33,448 bases of DNA. Origin: Promethearchaeota archaeon (GTDB taxonomy: Archaea > Asgardarchaeota > Lokiarchaeia > Sigyniarchaeales > SOKP01). The stretch is taken from NCBI GenBank assembly GCA_048940445.1, contig JBHLON010000034.1, positions 1-33,448 on the forward strand, written 5' to 3'. This document shows, piece after piece, positions 26,441 through 33,403 of this stretch. A program made the translations under genes and the position numbers. The notes below the pieces were generated by a model that saw nothing but the letters and a program-made list of their open reading frames with translations, did not search any database and had not been told where the DNA came from. Position 1 is the first letter of the stretch; every line of letters begins with the position of its first letter.

Positions 26441-28234
26441 TTAAGGGATTGTATGTAGCTCTTGAATTTCAGTGTACAATTCAATTAATTTCTTAGAAAC
26501 CATCTTCCATGTAAAATGATTTTTTACTCTATTTAGGCAATTTTCTCTGATTACACTAAAATAATTCGCATTCAGCAAAACTTGAGATTTTATGATCTCA
26601 TCGGGGATTGTATTTATTATTTTTAATGTCTCGTTATTATAACTCGTCCCCGTTTTTGAATCATTGACACTTAAAGCAACTTCAGCAGCCTTAAAGAGGG
26701 AAGTGGCTGCATTGCAAAATTGGGTCGAATTATCCTTTTCTATTAAGATACCGGTACCTATTTCGGGAAACAATCTCATATCTACTATTGTTTCTTGTAA
26801 CCCTCCGACTTTTGAGGCTATTATGGGGATTTTAGAAGCCATGGCTTCTAATGCCATTATTCCAAAAGGTTCCCAACGTGAGAGAGAAGCATACACATCT
26901 GCAGCTATATGAGCTAAATAAAATATATCAGAAGCGACTCCAAAAACTACTCTTATATTATTAGGGAATTTTTTAACATATTCAGCATAAAGTCTGATTT
27001 CATTAAGATTATAATCAGTTGGTAATACTAAAAATAAAAATTTTGCATTAGGAACTGATTCAATTATCCTTGGTATAGACATAAAAATAGTCTCAAATCC
27101 TTTTTGAGGTGAAATTCTACCAGTGGTAAGCATTAATGGACCAGATTCTGAAAATGCTTTAAGATTTCCATTTTTAAAGAAAGTTATTCCGTCATAAATC
27201 TCATTTATAGTATCTAAAACTTTTTGAGAACTAATGAAAGGACTCTCACTTAAATGTTGTATTTTATACTCAAGTAAATATTTCTTATAATCGTCTCTTT
27301 TAAGTTTTGTACCGAATGGTATGTTAAGTATATCGTAAATCTCATTACCTAGTCTTTGGTATACATCCTTTAATATAGTATCATAATCCCAATCGCAGCC
27401 ATCCCATACGAAATTAGATTTAAACTCTATTAAATCCTGACCGCAATTAGGAATTATGTCTGAGACTAAATATGATTTGCTAACGGTTGTGACCATATCA
27501 CAAACAATAGCGCCCACTTTTTCCACACTAGGGATAACGTCTATGGTTTTTACTAAAGAAAAAATGTCGATCATACTTATAGACTTAAATCCATCTGGTA
27601 GCCGTATTTCTATTGGTGTATTATCAATCCCACATGCTTTATAGAAATTTAAATCAAATTGAGGCCATGTTAATAAATGAATTGTAATTATAGAAGCAAT
27701 ATCTAAATAATTTTTAGTCAATACTTGTTTCATGCTAATATATGCTAAAACCGCATGGTAATCATGCAAATGAACTACATTAGGTAAGCTACCCCTTTCT
27801 TTATCAATTAAATATTCAATATAACACTTAATTCCTAGACTAAAAAAACAGATTTTTCCATTAATCGTATTAGGATTATAAATTGTCTTGTCATCTAAAA
27901 ATTGGGCTGTAAATGAATTTTCTCCAGATACAAGTATAATATTTACATTGTCTATTTTAAATTTATAAAATGAGATATAATAACTTGATTCTGGCTCCGC
28001 ATTTCTAAAAATAGATGGATCTATAAGACCAATACTTGAGAATGGTAACTTTTCATATTCAAAATTTTGCTTTAATCTCTCCAATTGTCCATGAGAAGGT
28101 AAAAATATTGTAACATCAAAAAGATCGGCTAAATGTTTAGCTTGATTTGCGGGTACTTCTCCTAAGCCACCAAATTTCACTATTCCGGCATATTCAAATG
28201 TAAAAATCCATACTTTTTTTTTCTCCCTAACCAA
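26441..28234 (-). CDS. glgA: Glycogen/starch synthase (GT5)
   Basis: FEYAGIVKFGGLGEV (KxGGL), HLHDYH, ITIHLL, TTVSKSY, GRISPQKG, SRWEPFGIMALEAM...KVGGL. Confidence 0.88.
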   Translation of the reverse strand: MVREKKKVWIFTFEYAGIVKFGGLGEVPANQAKHLADLFDVTIFLPSHGQLERLKQNFEYEKLPFSSIGLIDPSIFRNAEPESSYYISFYKFKIDNVNIILVSGENSFTAQFLDDKTIYNPNTINGKICFFSLGIKCYIEYLIDKERGSLPNVVHLHDYHAVLAYISMKQVLTKNYLDIASIITIHLLTWPQFDLNFYKACGIDNTPIEIRLPDGFKSISMIDIFSLVKTIDVIPSVEKVGAIVCDMVTTVSKSYLVSDIIPNCGQDLIEFKSNFVWDGCDWDYDTILKDVYQRLGNEIYDILNIPFGTKLKRDDYKKYLLEYKIQHLSESPFISSQKVLDTINEIYDGITFFKNGNLKAFSESGPLMLTTGRISPQKGFETIFMSIPRIIESVPNAKFLFLVLPTDYNLNEIRLYAEYVKKFPNNIRVVFGVASDIFYLAHIAADVYASLSRWEPFGIMALEAMASKIPIIASKVGGLQETIVDMRLFPEIGTGILIEKDNSTQFCNAATSLFKAAEVALSVNDSKTGTSYNNETLKIINTIPDEIIKSQVLLNANYFSVIRENCLNRVKNHFTWKMVSKKLIELYTEIQELHTIP

Positions 28235-28430
28235 GGTACAATAACTCTGTTTAATTAATTATAATTTTAGTTAGAAATGAGTTCTATTAAAACTTGATTA
28301 TGAATATTTTTTTCTAATATCAAATTGAGGCTATAGAGGCATAAATTTTTTATTTTTTTAAATATTCTAAAAATTAATTTTGCAATAATAGGTTATTATT
28401 TTGGTATTAAATAAATTAGAAATTCTAGGA

Positions 28431-28694
28431 ATGGAAGGAACAATCTCAAATTACAAGAGAGGTCGCCACAGAATACATCCTAAGCACTGTATAATAATTT
28501 TTCCAGATATAAAAACTAAAAATGAAGCAAATAAGTTAGTGGGAAGAACTTTAGTTTGGATTAGTCCTACTGGGAAAGAATTAAAAGGAGTAATAACACG
28601 TTCTCATGGTAATAACGGTGCAGTAAGAGTTCATTTTAAAAAAGCAGGAGTTCCAGGTCAAGCTCTTGGGACAAAAGTGAAGATTATACACTAA
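28431..28694 (+). CDS. rpl35ae: 50S ribosomal protein L35Ae (ATG 28431; an alternative TTG start lies at 28401)
   Basis: GTISNYKRGRH, EANKLVGR.L.W, GVITRSHGNNGAVRVHF...PGQALG. Confidence 0.93.
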   Translation: MEGTISNYKRGRHRIHPKHCIIIFPDIKTKNEANKLVGRTLVWISPTGKELKGVITRSHGNNGAVRVHFKKAGVPGQALGTKVKIIH

Positions 28695-28879: not shown

Positions 28880-30994
28880 ATGTTAGACCAACACATACAA
28901 ATATGTCGTTTCTGTCAACGGAATGTAAAATTAGCTTATTATTGCGAAGATTGTGGTATTAGCTGTTGTAATGATTGTTTGCATGAAGAAAAATATGATT
29001 TCTATGTTTGTCAAGATTGTAATTCAAAAAATATTGAAATTTTGGATTCGGGTAAAAAGAAAGTATGTAAGAATTGTGAGAAAGAAAACATAAAATTAGT
29101 TAGTCAACAATTAAAATCCTGTCCTAAATGTCATTCTCATCAAATTATTAATATCTATGAAAAAAAGGAACAATTAGAAAAAAAATTCTTAGATTTAATC
29201 AAAGACGCGCGTAACTTTATAGAACCTCTAAGAGGTGGTCTCAATAGTTTATATACACTAAGACAGAAGATTGAAGCAGCAAGAGCTCCCCCGATTAGGT
29301 GTTTTCATTACCCAAATATGGAATCTGATATATTGTCATTATTTAAATTATATATTTATGCTAAAGAAAACTTATTAGAAAAAATCAGAATTCTTTTTCA
29401 TCATTTTTCCCTTAATAAAGAGTACTTCTTTAATATTTATGACCAACCAAATTCAAATGTAAAAATAATAGAAGGAATATTTGAAAATCTTAATACAAAT
29501 TTTCATTCTATTAATGAATTTATAACCAATAATATTGTAACTATTATTAATAGTATTGAACCTATTCAAAAAAATCTCTATTTCATTGAAAAAATAAACT
29601 CCCTTTTTGATTCATATAGAAAGTATTTAAATTTAGCAGAAGAAGAAAAACCTGTATATTCTATATTTGCTAAACTAACAAATGGATTAAATAGTCAAGA
29701 TAAATTTAAGAAAAAGAAAGGAATTTTATTTATAACTAATTTCGATTTGTCTTTTGTGCGAGTTTATGGGAAAATTAAAAAAAAGAGAAAAACTATCTTT
29801 AAAGCTCCCGTAAAAGATTTAATCAGGATCAAAATTCAAGGAAAGCTATTTAAAAAATTGTATGTAGAATTTGAGTATGGTCGATATGAATTTACTCTTC
29901 CCTCTAATTCCCTCACAAAAGTTATGGATTATATACTTCTAGCAAGAAATTTTGATGAATGTGTTATTTATGATGAAGAATCTGCGAAAAAGCTATATGA
30001 CATAGATATTGATTTTTCAGATATCATAAATTATATTGAAGAAGCAATTAATTCCTTTTTCAGTTTGAAATGTAAGTATAATAATATACAACACAGAGGC
30101 ATCTCTAATGACCAACAAAAAATCAATAATCCGTTTACTCAAAGCTTAAATTTTCCTGAAAGACAAATCCAATTTAATACAATTCCACTTCAAAATCCTC
30201 AGCAATTTGATACGGTTCAAAATTCTTCAATTTTCCCTCCAGGATTTTATAAAAATTATAATCCTAATCTACAACACCCATCGCTTTATCAAAATCCCTA
30301 TAATTATCAAAATTCTCAAATACATACTCCTGGAGATATTAAGTACTATGGTAATAACTTAAGATGGTATCTTCCACCGAATTATAATGAAAATGATTTT
30401 TTTCTGCAAAATTTTTATAATCCTAATCGTATACAAAATTATCGTCCAACAAAATATGATTCTCCCTATAATAGCTTTTTTGATAGTGAAGATAAAAATC
30501 TTTTAATGAGAAGACTAGGGCAAATGCAACGCCAAGATTTTCGAAATTTTGGCGATCTAAATAATCTTAAAAATGACATAGACAATGAACTGTTTATGCA
30601 ACTGAATGCTGAAAATCGTGAAAGAAATTCAATTCCAGTTTATCAAGAGTATGCAAAAAATCATTTATCAGACCTATTTAATTCAGATTATACTTTGTCT
30701 CAATCAGATTACAAACCAAGACAGCAAACATCCAAATATGAAAAATCAAAAAGAAAGAAAATGTTAGAATTAGAAAAAGAGAAATATGGCCTTGAAGAAA
30801 CATTGAAAACCTTAGATGCTAAATTCGATAAAGGGATCATTTCTGAAATAGATTATTTTAGAACATTTAAAAATCTGCAAAAAGATATTTACTTAATTGA
30901 TAGAAAAATCGAAAACTTAGAAGAAGAAATAAAAGAAAGTGAATATCTAAAAAGATCTAATAGAGAGTTTGATAAAAGAAGATACTTTAGTTAA
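28880..30994 (+). CDS. Multidomain ESCRT-I-like protein: Zn fingers, coiled coil, PH-like domain, low-complexity linker and C-terminal steadiness box (Vps23 core)
   Basis: Six Cys pairs at the N-terminus; PH-like segment at aa ~250-355; N/Q/P/Y-rich aa ~400-575. The C-terminal EKYGLEETLKTLDAKFDKGIISEIDYFRTFKNLQKDIYLI aligns by eye with the TSG101 SB. The gene is adjacent to Snf7. Confidence 0.7.
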   Translation: MLDQHIQICRFCQRNVKLAYYCEDCGISCCNDCLHEEKYDFYVCQDCNSKNIEILDSGKKKVCKNCEKENIKLVSQQLKSCPKCHSHQIINIYEKKEQLEKKFLDLIKDARNFIEPLRGGLNSLYTLRQKIEAARAPPIRCFHYPNMESDILSLFKLYIYAKENLLEKIRILFHHFSLNKEYFFNIYDQPNSNVKIIEGIFENLNTNFHSINEFITNNIVTIINSIEPIQKNLYFIEKINSLFDSYRKYLNLAEEEKPVYSIFAKLTNGLNSQDKFKKKKGILFITNFDLSFVRVYGKIKKKRKTIFKAPVKDLIRIKIQGKLFKKLYVEFEYGRYEFTLPSNSLTKVMDYILLARNFDECVIYDEESAKKLYDIDIDFSDIINYIEEAINSFFSLKCKYNNIQHRGISNDQQKINNPFTQSLNFPERQIQFNTIPLQNPQQFDTVQNSSIFPPGFYKNYNPNLQHPSLYQNPYNYQNSQIHTPGDIKYYGNNLRWYLPPNYNENDFFLQNFYNPNRIQNYRPTKYDSPYNSFFDSEDKNLLMRRLGQMQRQDFRNFGDLNNLKNDIDNELFMQLNAENRERNSIPVYQEYAKNHLSDLFNSDYTLSQSDYKPRQQTSKYEKSKRKKMLELEKEKYGLEETLKTLDAKFDKGIISEIDYFRTFKNLQKDIYLIDRKIENLEEEIKESEYLKRSNREFDKRRYFS

Positions 30995-31014
30995 ATAATT
31001 ACATATATAGTGTC

Positions 31015-31031
31015 TTTTTTTCAAAAAAAAA
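31015..31031. terminator. Probable bidirectional oligo-T terminator between the convergent ESCRT genes
   Basis: T7-C-A9 in the 37-bp gap gives a T-tract on each strand downstream of each stop codon. Confidence 0.5.
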
Positions 31032-31682
31032 TTATCCGCCTTCTAGTTCCTTCCTTAGCTTTTCTATTTCATCTTCTAGCTTCGCTTTAGTCTTAATCTC
31101 AGGTTCTTCTTCAATATCGAATTCAGAGATATACTGAAGATCATCGGCAGGTACTTCGGGCATTTGGCCTCCTTGTTCTAATAACATTTCAGTTTCAAGC
31201 TGATTCAATTCATCTGTAACATCAATTGCTAAATCAATTTCAGGGTCACCTGCCAAAATATCAGCAGATTCCTCTATTTCTGATACATAAGCCTCAGAAT
31301 CTTCTGCTATTTCTGCAATTTTCGTAGGAGAAGCCTTTGTAGCAATTGTTTCTAGTTCATCTCTAATTCCTCCCATTAAATCCCCAGTCATAGAAATCAT
31401 CTGACCTTCTTCAATGGCTTCAATTTGGCGTTCTATTTTAGCCCTAATATTGTTTGCACGATCAACTTTTTGTTGATATTGCTTATATTGAATTAAATAA
31501 TTTTTTGCCCTATCCCGTTCGCCTCTTTTTAATGCAATTTTTGCATTTTTTCTAGCAATTTCCGATCTTTGACTATAAGATTTATTTGCTAACGCAATTT
31601 TACGAATATGAGACTTGGCTTTTATTACTAACTCATCTTTTTCTTTACCTTTTCGAGGGAATAATTTTTTCTTAAGTCCCAC
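31032..31682 (-). CDS. ESCRT-III Snf7-family protein (Vps20/32/60 class)
   Basis: Basic N-terminal helical hairpin (AKIALKRGERDRAKNYL..YK.YQQKVDR...IERQIEAIE), acidic C-terminal half, DVTDELNQLE, MIM2-like MPEVP, and C-terminal helix LEDEIEKLRKEL. Confidence 0.9.
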   Translation of the reverse strand: MGLKKKLFPRKGKEKDELVIKAKSHIRKIALANKSYSQRSEIARKNAKIALKRGERDRAKNYLIQYKQYQQKVDRANNIRAKIERQIEAIEEGQMISMTGDLMGGIRDELETIATKASPTKIAEIAEDSEAYVSEIEESADILAGDPEIDLAIDVTDELNQLETEMLLEQGGQMPEVPADDLQYISEFDIEEEPEIKTKAKLEDEIEKLRKELEGG

Positions 31683-31833: not shown

Positions 31834-32943
31834 ATGAAAAAAATTATTTTAAATTTAGAACATAAAACAAATAATCTAAAAGAACTTATTCAAGAAGCTT
31901 TCAATCAAAATATTGTAAACTTTTTAATATCTAATGAAACCATAGAATATTTTGAAGGTATTGAACGTATAATCCGATATTCTGCATTTCCTGAAGATTT
32001 CTCTGAAAATGTTATTTTTAATTCTGTAAATAATCTCCAAAAATTCAAAGAAAGATATCACAATAAGAGAAGGATTGGTTTTTTTAAGGTTTTAAAGTCA
32101 AAAGAAGATGAAAATGAGATTCGTAACTTAATAGAACAAAAAATTCTTACCTTTATTATAATTGTAGCTACTGATTGGAAAGTTATTCCCTTTGAGAATT
32201 TAGTATCTATTAGTCAATCAAAAGATATTGAATTGATCGCATGCGTACAAAACCTTGAAGAAGCAGAATTATTGCTAAAAATACTTGAAATCGGTGTTGA
32301 TGGAATTTTATTTTCCCCTAAAAATGTTAATGATTTAAAAGCCTTAAAGAAATTGATAAATAGTAATGTTAAGCTAGATTTAAAGAAAGCACGAATTCTT
32401 AAAATTCAAGCACTCCCGGAGAGCGATAGAGTGTGTGTTGATACTACTTCACTCCTACAAAAAGGTGAGGGAATGCTTGTTGGGAGTACAGCCCAAGGAT
32501 TTGTGCTTATTCATTCAGAAACCATTGACACAAAATTTGTCAGAGCTAGACCATTTCGTGTTAATGCTGGTGATGTTTCATCGTATATTCTTGTTCCTGG
32601 GGATGATTTGAATTCATATCGTACCAAATATTTAAGTGAACTAAGAGGGGGAGATAAAGTTCTTATTGTTAATACTGAAGGACTAGGAAGAATAGTTTCT
32701 GTTGGGCGAGTCAAAATTGAAACACGTCCCATGTTAAGATTTGAATTAGAAACTATAATTAATAATGAGCAGATTTCTATAAGTTGCGTCTGTCAAAACG
32801 CAGAAACGATTAGATTAGTAAATTCAGAAGGGAACGCTATATCTGTAGTAGATATTAAAGTAGGAGATGAGATTTTAGTGCATCTTGGACCTAAAGCAAC
32901 ACATTTTGGTACAAAAATAAAAGAAAGGATTATAGAGAAGTAA
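31834..32943 (+). CDS. aroB': 3-dehydroquinate synthase II (archaeal type)
   Basis: DWKVIPFENL, LEIGVDG, DRVCVDTTSLL..GEGMLVGS, RPFRVNAG, YLSEL..GD, VGRVKIETRP, QNAETIRL; GGTG SD-like motif upstream. Confidence 0.94.
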   Translation: MKKIILNLEHKTNNLKELIQEAFNQNIVNFLISNETIEYFEGIERIIRYSAFPEDFSENVIFNSVNNLQKFKERYHNKRRIGFFKVLKSKEDENEIRNLIEQKILTFIIIVATDWKVIPFENLVSISQSKDIELIACVQNLEEAELLLKILEIGVDGILFSPKNVNDLKALKKLINSNVKLDLKKARILKIQALPESDRVCVDTTSLLQKGEGMLVGSTAQGFVLIHSETIDTKFVRARPFRVNAGDVSSYILVPGDDLNSYRTKYLSELRGGDKVLIVNTEGLGRIVSVGRVKIETRPMLRFELETIINNEQISISCVCQNAETIRLVNSEGNAISVVDIKVGDEILVHLGPKATHFGTKIKERIIEK

Positions 32944-32947
32944 TACT

Positions 32948-33403
32948 TTAATCTTGATAAATAGCCATCGTGTCTTTACTTTCTTCTAATTTAACAGTGA
33001 GTTTCTTATTTTTATAATGCTCCTTTATTTTCTCATAGATGTATTTGGCGAGTAATTCACTGGTAGTTGCTGGAATAGGTAAAAATACAACCTCTGAAAG
33101 AGGAAAAACATATCGTTTATTTAAAGCCTGAATTTCTAAAGAATCGAGATTTTTCTTCATTTTAAAATCTGAAGATTCATTTGGAATTAGAATGAAGTGA
33201 TCTAATTGTTTAACAACTTCTTTAATGATTTTCTTTAACTTAATAAAATCTTCAACAAAATAATTTTCATCTAATTCTGCTTCTAATTCAACAGACACAT
33301 AGTAATTATGACCGTGAAGTCTTGAGCATTTTAAAGGTTCTTTTAAAAAATGACAAGCACTAAATTTTATCCTATTTGAATTAATAATTACTTTATATCC
33401 CAT
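32948..33403 (-). CDS. queD: 6-carboxytetrahydropterin / 6-pyruvoyltetrahydropterin synthase
   Basis: FSACHFL...CSRLHGHNY, DF..LK....LDH, TTSELLAKYI, V.LEES. Confidence 0.92.
   Translation of the reverse strand: MGYKVIINSNRIKFSACHFLKEPLKCSRLHGHNYYVSVELEAELDENYFVEDFIKLKKIIKEVVKQLDHFILIPNESSDFKMKKNLDSLEIQALNKRYVFPLSEVVFLPIPATTSELLAKYIYEKIKEHYKNKKLTVKLEESKDTMAIYQD

Follow-up and report, generated by a model that had tools for sequence, protein, structure and literature searches.

A zinc-finger and PH-domain protein with a steadiness-box-type hairpin, encoded opposite an ESCRT-III gene in a Lokiarchaeial genome

[quoted passage not shown] The window, that is, the whole stretch of 33,448 nucleotides that was analysed (G+C ~29%), encodes a 704-aa protein whose gene converges on that of a 216-aa ESCRT-III protein of the Snf7 family, the two being separated by 37 bp. 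A preliminary description of this DNA had proposed that the 704-aa protein ends in a steadiness box (SB), that zinc fingers including a B-box, a coiled coil and a PH-like domain stand in place of the UEV, and that such a protein could offer a ubiquitin-UEV-independent alternative route to ESCRT-III.

As a Lokiarchaeial ortholog, the 704-aa protein belongs to a family that Makarova et al. 2024 (mBio 15:e00335-24, PMC10936438) named Znr_CC_PH_SB (also Znr_PH_CC_SB; asCOG cog.011556), describing it as 'a likely ESCRT-I component' with a PH domain that 'is expected to be membrane associated'. It shows the three putative zinc sites, the helical region, the PH domain and the C-terminal SB of the family, in the same domain order and in the same phylum as As_004-p_01543 of Lokiarchaeum sp. 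GC14_75, to which it is orthologous by gene order. Table S2 of that study gives for GC14_75 the genes for L35Ae (+), cog.011556 (+), MetE (+), a Vps20-family ESCRT-III (-) and 3-dehydroquinate synthase (+), and the order in the window, with the Vps20-type ESCRT-III gene again on the opposite strand, is the published one minus MetE. The two differ in length (704 aa in the window, 650 aa in GC14_75) and in the MetE-like gene missing from the window pair, and in nothing essential. The observation made in the preliminary description is confirmed and its interpretation supported, and both were already in print, including the proposal that the protein is part of ESCRT-I and associates with membranes through its PH domain. 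The features on which the argument turns are listed below, with local model confidence given as predicted local distance difference test (pLDDT) values.

28880..30994, + strand: Znr_CC_PH_SB gene, 704 aa, member of asCOG cog.011556 (open reading frame, homologs, synteny with the published locus)
28898..29140, + strand: N-terminal zinc module, aa 7-87 (12 invariant cysteines; beta-hairpins with pLDDT ~80)
29153..29629, + strand: helical region (bundle or coiled coil), aa 92-250 (helices predicted with pLDDT ~90)
29633..29959, + strand: PH-fold domain, aa 252-360 (VIA-align, family profiles, conserved residues)
30095..30724, + strand: disordered linker rich in N, Q, Y and P, aa 406-615 (pLDDT ~30)
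30734..30973, + strand: steadiness-box-type helical hairpin, aa 619-698, with helices 619-650 and 656-698 (profiles, Foldseek)
30995..31031, no strand: convergent intergenic gap of 37 bp, with T7-C-A9 at 31015-31031
31032..31682, - strand: ESCRT-IIIB gene (Vps20/32/60-like, CHMP4-7), 216 aa (Pfam Snf7, PDB 9fn1_U)

The C-terminal hairpin

The case for the SB is carried by profile searches against the PDB (177,635 sequences) with three alignments, one of 38 close homologs (A1), one of 29 diverse family members (A2) and one of the hairpin only (A3). With A2, the yeast Vps23 core occupied ranks 1-3 (2p22_A, E 4.5e-4; 2f66_A, 5e-3; 2caz_A, 9e-3), followed by TSG101 and VPS37B, and the alignment with the yeast Vps23 hairpin extended over 57 residues without gaps. 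With A3, the best natural PDB proteins were again the yeast Vps23 core (2f66_A, E 3.4e-5; 2caz_A, 1.5e-4; 2p22_A, 2.6e-4) and then VPS37B (2.6e-3). Two designed repeat proteins (dTor) that topped this last search contained no single passing stretch and were discarded as a repeat artefact. The A1 profile reached Vps23 only at E 1.8 because it is too shallow, hence the need for the diverse alignment. The stretch quoted in the preliminary description sits at aa 632-671, within this hairpin.

The predicted fold agrees with the profiles. An AlphaFold2 (AF2) model of aa 605-704 reached a pLDDT of 84.7, and chains of the ESCRT-I headpiece made up eight of its ten best Foldseek matches among 350,542 chains, with a root-mean-square deviation (rmsd) of 0.6-0.8 Å over 53-58 residues. 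The rival idea raised in the preliminary description, that a generic SHOCT domain would explain the hairpin better, found no profile match in its favour: SHOCT (PF09851) gave no match to the 704-aa protein at E up to 1, and it was outside the 25 commonest families in the 29 relatives. Judged by its profiles, the hairpin is homologous to the headpiece hairpins of Vps23, Vps37 and Vps28, and as far as sequence and predicted fold can tell, it is a steadiness box.

Hairpins of this kind recur in the same organism. A hidden Markov model (HMM) of the hairpin matches the N-terminal hairpin of Asgard Vps28 (L103:7230-7469, 28.6 bits) and, in the window's genome, that of the 220-aa Vps28 (C61:52519-53178, - strand; E 0.09), which suggests that this genome uses the SB more than once as a docking module. 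The same HMM also matches the C-termini of two 454-aa proteins (C27:664-2025, + strand, E 7.8e-4; C100:30466-31827, - strand, E 0.01).

Compared with eukaryotic Vps23/TSG101 (2F66, 2CAZ, 2P22, 6VME), the window protein shares the C-terminal hairpin and a long, flexible, low-complexity linker in front of it, but has no UEV, its N-terminus being formed instead by the zinc module, the helical bundle and the PH domain. The region upstream of the hairpin, where Vps23 has its stalk, is predicted to be disordered and gives a low-quality profile alignment to the stalk of 2p22_A, with no demonstrable stalk helix. The absence of a UEV, already remarked in the preliminary description, is borne out both by Pfam, with no UEV or UQ_con match to the protein, and by the AF2 model, which contains no alpha/beta UBC-like domain.

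Architecture of the N-terminal head and linker

Both open reading frames are real, with the coordinates, convergent orientation and 37-bp gap of the preliminary description. More than 255 full-length homologs of the 704-aa protein (650-715 aa, 50-93% identity) occur in Lokiarchaeial metagenome-assembled genomes (MAGs), clustering at the 50% level leaves 132 representatives of the family, with identity down to ~20%, and M1 is invariant across A1. Single-sequence Pfam searches with the protein gave no match besides Vps23_core below threshold, and NCBIfam gave zero matches. The full-length AF2 model, which drew on 38 homologs and whose pLDDT is bimodal with a mean of 66, divides the protein into zinc-hairpin strands (aa 1-91), a helical bundle (92-250), a seven-strand sandwich with a C-terminal helix (260-356), two more helices (366-405), disorder (406-615) and the C-terminal hairpin (pLDDT ~90). 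The zinc fingers, helical or coiled-coil region and PH-like domain that had been read from the sequence all find their counterparts here.

Eight cysteines of the zinc module are arranged with B-box/RING-like spacing (C9, C12, C22, C25, C30, C33, C44, C47) and four belong to a zinc ribbon (C63, C66, C81, C84). All 12 are invariant in the 38 close and 29 distant homologs, at identities as low as 17%, and would be enough for three zinc sites. The more specific label of a B-box fares less well: zf-B_box (PF00643) matches eight of the 29 relatives (best E 2.4e-5), which keeps the label weakly supported, but it does not match the 704-aa protein itself at E up to 1 in Pfam. Several orthologs are labelled 'B-box zinc finger protein' by PGAP.

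The same module invites a rival explanation of the whole protein, namely that it is a B-box/RING-like zinc-finger protein of regulatory or ubiquitin-handling type, which would chiefly recognize ubiquitin or cargo or act like an E3 and would need its PH domain and hairpin for localization only. The spacing of the eight cysteines resembles B-box1 and RING, zf-B_box matches eight of the 29 relatives and an ANCHR-like B-box profile four, comparison with the PDB gives weak matches to the B-boxes of TRIM28, TRIM21 and MID1 and to the RING of RNF4, besides FYVE domains, and a ubiquitin system is encoded in the window's genome. Yet all zinc-module matches are sub-threshold or marginal, the 704-aa protein itself has none, and Makarova et al. 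2024 (PMC10936438) interpret the module as three simple zinc ribbons. We consider this explanation improbable.

Behind the zinc module, the AF2 helices of the bundle span aa 92-113, 115-133, 147-184 and 191-250. Foldseek placed DH-PH and BAR-PH proteins at the top for the full model, at an rmsd of at least 20 Å and with only the PH part superposing; since DH and BAR matches lie at an rmsd of 12-20 Å, neither assignment was retained and the bundle is given no specific fold.

For the domain that follows, VIA-align gives a PH fold with Z 12-13.5 and an rmsd of 2.2-2.9 Å over 97-106 residues (aa 250-360), its structural matches being the PH domains of TBC1D23, TAPP1, BTK and GRK2 and the GRAM-PH domains of MTMR2 and Lam6. 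Among the 29 relatives, the same region matches the Pfam families bPH_3 (16/29, several above the cut-off), GRAM (7/29) and Vps36 GLUE. Conserved glycines are bordered by two basic loops that are likewise conserved (K275-K280 and K298-K304), and G281, G297 and K301 are invariant or near-invariant.

The combination of a PH fold and zinc fingers in one ESCRT protein recalls the GLUE domain of eukaryotic Vps36, a subunit of ESCRT-II, and four of the 29 relatives match Vps36_ESCRT-II weakly (best E 1.8e-4). In the window protein, however, the zinc fingers precede the PH domain at the N-terminus instead of interrupting it, the EAP30 winged-helix domain of Vps36 is absent (no EAP30 match in Pfam), and the C-terminus is of ESCRT-I type.

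The linker of ~210 aa (N 16%, Q 10.5%) varies over the phylum in length and sequence and is not alignable phylum-wide. In the Lokiarchaeial orthologs it contains two islands that are at least 80% conserved, FF.QN....NR.QNY.P (~aa 507-523) and NHLS(D/E)LF (~aa 594-600), and a third conserved island in the form of a short predicted helix, KN.L..KLEQ (~aa 540-548). The three islands are candidate short linear binding motifs. The linker helix, aa 538-551, was considered as a motif of the MIM1 type and rejected, being, by eye, out of register with the MIM1 consensus.

Conserved pairing with ESCRT-III

That the 216-aa neighbour belongs to ESCRT-III, as first described, is secured by Pfam Snf7 (PF03357, E 3.8e-11; 43.4 bits against a cut-off of 27.3). 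It aligns over residues 1-214 with PDB 9fn1_U ('Vps20/32/60-like protein', E 2.6e-93), which is CHMP4-7 of Lokiarchaeum GC14_75 (KKK44605.1; Melnikov et al. 2025, EMBO J, PMC11791191), a protein that self-assembles as helical filaments and remodels membranes (PMC11791191). On this alignment the neighbour is an ortholog of Lokiarchaeal CHMP4-7, that is, of the Vps20/32/60-like, self-polymerising ESCRT-IIIB type. The 9FN1 chain comes from another Lokiarchaeial genome, and the neighbour is otherwise ordinary.

Of the 201 Asgard genomes sampled, 172 encode a Znr_CC_PH_SB protein, and 24 of the 27 families are represented; the adjacency to Snf7 turned out to be conserved across the phylum, with the proviso that these genomes are related and the loci are not independent trials. 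In Lokiarchaeia, an ESCRT-III gene lies downstream and convergent in 71 of 80 loci, 35 of them with a gap of 13-156 bp and 36 with one gene between; for seven of the remaining nine, the contig stops short. The other Asgard families show ESCRT-III immediately downstream and convergent in 15 of 20 loci, with gaps of -4 to 636 bp, which makes the pairing with ESCRT genes a phylum-wide feature of Asgard archaea. The remaining genes of the window that flank the pair are the following.

26441-28234, - strand: glycogen-synthase-like glycosyltransferase
28401-28694, + strand: ribosomal protein L35Ae
31834-32943, + strand: 3-dehydroquinate synthase II (DHQS)
32948-33403, - strand: PTPS-family gene

These flanks matter for a second rival, in which the 704-aa protein is not an ESCRT protein at all but a zinc/PH protein with a generic coiled-coil or SHOCT-like oligomerisation tail that sits near Snf7 by inherited synteny. 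The Lokiarchaeial loci also retain L35Ae and DHQS, so the pairing with ESCRT-III there could, taken alone, be inherited synteny, and the sub-threshold Pfam score of the single sequence points the same way. In the 20 non-Lokiarchaeial loci, by contrast, L35Ae and DHQS are gone while ESCRT-III stays, and many of these loci run straight into Vps4, Vps25 and Vps22; since the pairing is kept where these flanks have vanished, it is not just inherited local synteny. Together with the specificity of the PDB profile matches for ESCRT-I and the missing SHOCT match, this leaves the non-ESCRT explanation close to refuted, and we give it hardly any credence.

Several side observations were made at these loci. 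The gene that intervenes in 36 of the 80 Lokiarchaeial loci is MetE-like where checked, for example at L039:8017-9081 (+ strand), whose product resembles cobalamin-independent methionine synthase (Meth_synt_2, E 8.9e-11). In one Asgard family, f7 (L089, L105, L106), the ortholog borders on the main ESCRT cluster: the genes for Vps22, Vps25, Vps4 and ESCRT-III are followed by the convergent Znr gene, the gaps measuring 0-163 bp. Its ESCRT-III neighbour here scores nearer to the ESCRT-IIIA paralog of the window's genome than to CHMP4-7, but the typing of distant neighbours as ESCRT-IIIA or ESCRT-IIIB by phmmer score is crude and was not relied on. In a lineage without an ESCRT-III neighbour, an Arf-family small GTPase (PF00025, E 1.2e-9; L099:7327-7890, + strand) is encoded directly downstream of the ortholog.

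A complete Lokiarchaeial block (glycosyltransferase, L35Ae, Znr_CC_PH_SB gene, ESCRT-III and DHQS; 56-83% protein identity) was also found in DATKTW010000152.1 (L058), labelled 'Candidatus Nanopelagicaceae bacterium', a name that this contig probably bears through mis-binning or mislabelling. The Lokiarchaeial gene order likewise occurs in several JBHL* MAGs whose labels read Odin-, Thor-, Hod- or Hermodarchaeota.

In the window itself, the T7-C-A9 sequence places an oligo-T tract on either strand right past each of the two stop codons. Archaeal transcription termination uses oligo-T tracts, and T7-C-A9 is plausibly a bidirectional terminator shared by both genes.

Probable place in the ESCRT pathway

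The genome to which the window belongs (3.64 Mb, 93% complete) encodes, on contig C101, the usual cluster of ESCRT-IIIA, Vps4, Vps25-like and Vps22, and elsewhere the Vps28 described above and a Vps28_C fusion on C119. It further contains five E2/UEV-like matches, found with UQ_con, and four ubiquitin-like matches; the UEV profile of Pfam gave no match in this genome, a result that is uninformative as the control had none either. Because E2/UEV-like and ubiquitin-like genes coexist with the gene for the 704-aa protein, the latter comes on top of a ubiquitin-linked route instead of taking its place, so that the independent alternative route of the preliminary description becomes an addition. 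The protein would then be one of several SB-bearing adaptors, not a substitute for the UEV route.

Within this setting, we think it probable that the 704-aa protein serves the Asgard ESCRT pathway as an adaptor close to the membrane, with its SB hairpin in a Vps28-containing headpiece. The PH domain, and possibly the zinc module, would bind acidic membrane lipids or cargo, and the long flexible linker would tether this head to the hairpin. The hairpin may dock, together with Vps28, in an ESCRT-I-like headpiece of three hairpins, from which the pathway would lead via Vps22 and Vps25 to the polymerising ESCRT-IIIB subunit CHMP4-7. Interaction of Asgard SB proteins with Vps28, and contact of ESCRT-I with Vps22, have been reported by Hatano et al. 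2022 (PMC9192718) for families other than Znr_CC_PH_SB.

Several points weigh against this assignment. Pfam Vps23_core reaches only 15.3 bits on the 704-aa protein (aa 625-671), below the cut-off of 26.8, and weakly matches six control bacterial genomes. The Foldseek E-values of the hairpin are weak, about 0.13-0.4 (0.13-0.33 for the ESCRT-I headpiece chains), because the hairpin is short, and a wide VIA-align comparison does not discriminate: many hairpins, those of ESCRT-III and CdvA among them, score Z 9-10.6. Binding of acidic lipids by the PH domain is suggested by its fold and basic loops and by nothing else. Finally, the two genes of the pair are convergent, which excludes co-transcription, and the conserved chromosomal partner is ESCRT-III, not Vps28; a direct link to ESCRT-III fits this at least as well as a role in ESCRT-I.

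Such a direct link is the core of a third rival, modelled on crenarchaeal CdvA, a membrane-binding ESCRT-III recruiter with an SB-like hairpin. Here the PH domain would bind the membrane and the protein would recruit or nucleate CHMP4-7, bypassing ESCRT-I and ESCRT-II, with the hairpin serving self-assembly or contact with ESCRT-III. The phylum-wide chromosomal partner fits this proposal, as do the superposition of the hairpin model on the hairpin of the S. islandicus CdvA filament (9s9g_A; VIA-align Z 10.3, rmsd 2.2 Å, 84 residues) and on ESCRT-III hairpins, weak Pfam CdvA matches in some relatives, and the HHpred similarity of the SB to the hairpin of CdvA reported by Makarova et al. 2024 (PMC10936438). 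However, the sequence profiles choose Vps23 and VPS37B, not CdvA or ESCRT-III, and the structural Z values fall inside the range of generic helical hairpins. CdvA combines a PRC barrel with an E3B peptide and lacks a zinc module and a PH domain, its similarity in sequence is marginal, no E3B-type or MIM-type peptide was identified in the 704-aa protein, and the convergence of the genes, which are not co-transcribed, counts against this proposal as well. We regard a CdvA-like recruiter as rather unlikely and favour the adaptor with its hairpin in the ESCRT-I headpiece.

A variant from one Asgard family extends the comparison with ESCRT-II. At L090:8401-10206 and L108:8026-9843 (both + strand), the positional ortholog (protein P0214) has, in place of the hairpin, a C-terminal EAP30/Vps22-36 domain (PF04157, E 1.8e-11, a match above the cut-off). 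It keeps the Zn-CC-PH head (zinc module, coiled coil and PH domain) and the convergent ESCRT-III neighbour, and Vps36 GLUE gives 22.0 bits on its PH region, short of the cut-off of 24.1. In the same loci, a separate SB protein of 265-277 aa adjoins Vps28 and Vps22 (L090:1316-1552 and L108:890-1126, both - strand). By its domain matches P0214 is of Vps36-like architecture, the N-terminal module being fused to EAP30; no full-length Vps36 homologues were reported in Asgard archaea by Hatano et al. 2022 (PMC9192718).

As one further ortholog of a published family, the window adds a modest amount to what is known, namely independent statistical and structural support for the SB and the PH fold, a phylum-wide count of the pairing with ESCRT-III, and the EAP30-ending variant as a lead that links the module to ESCRT-II. 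The 704-aa protein is a plausible answer to how an Asgard ESCRT system without ESCRT-0 or the GLUE domain of Vps36 finds its membrane. More tentatively, the Zn-CC-PH module may be an ancient, portable membrane- or cargo-targeting head that has been plugged into ESCRT-I through the SB and, in the L090/L108 lineage, into ESCRT-II through EAP30. If so, the module would correspond in archaea to the GLUE module of Vps36 and might be its forerunner, and the convergent, phylum-wide gene pairing would mark the Zn-CC-PH protein as the primary site-selection factor for the assembly of ESCRT-III in Asgard archaea.

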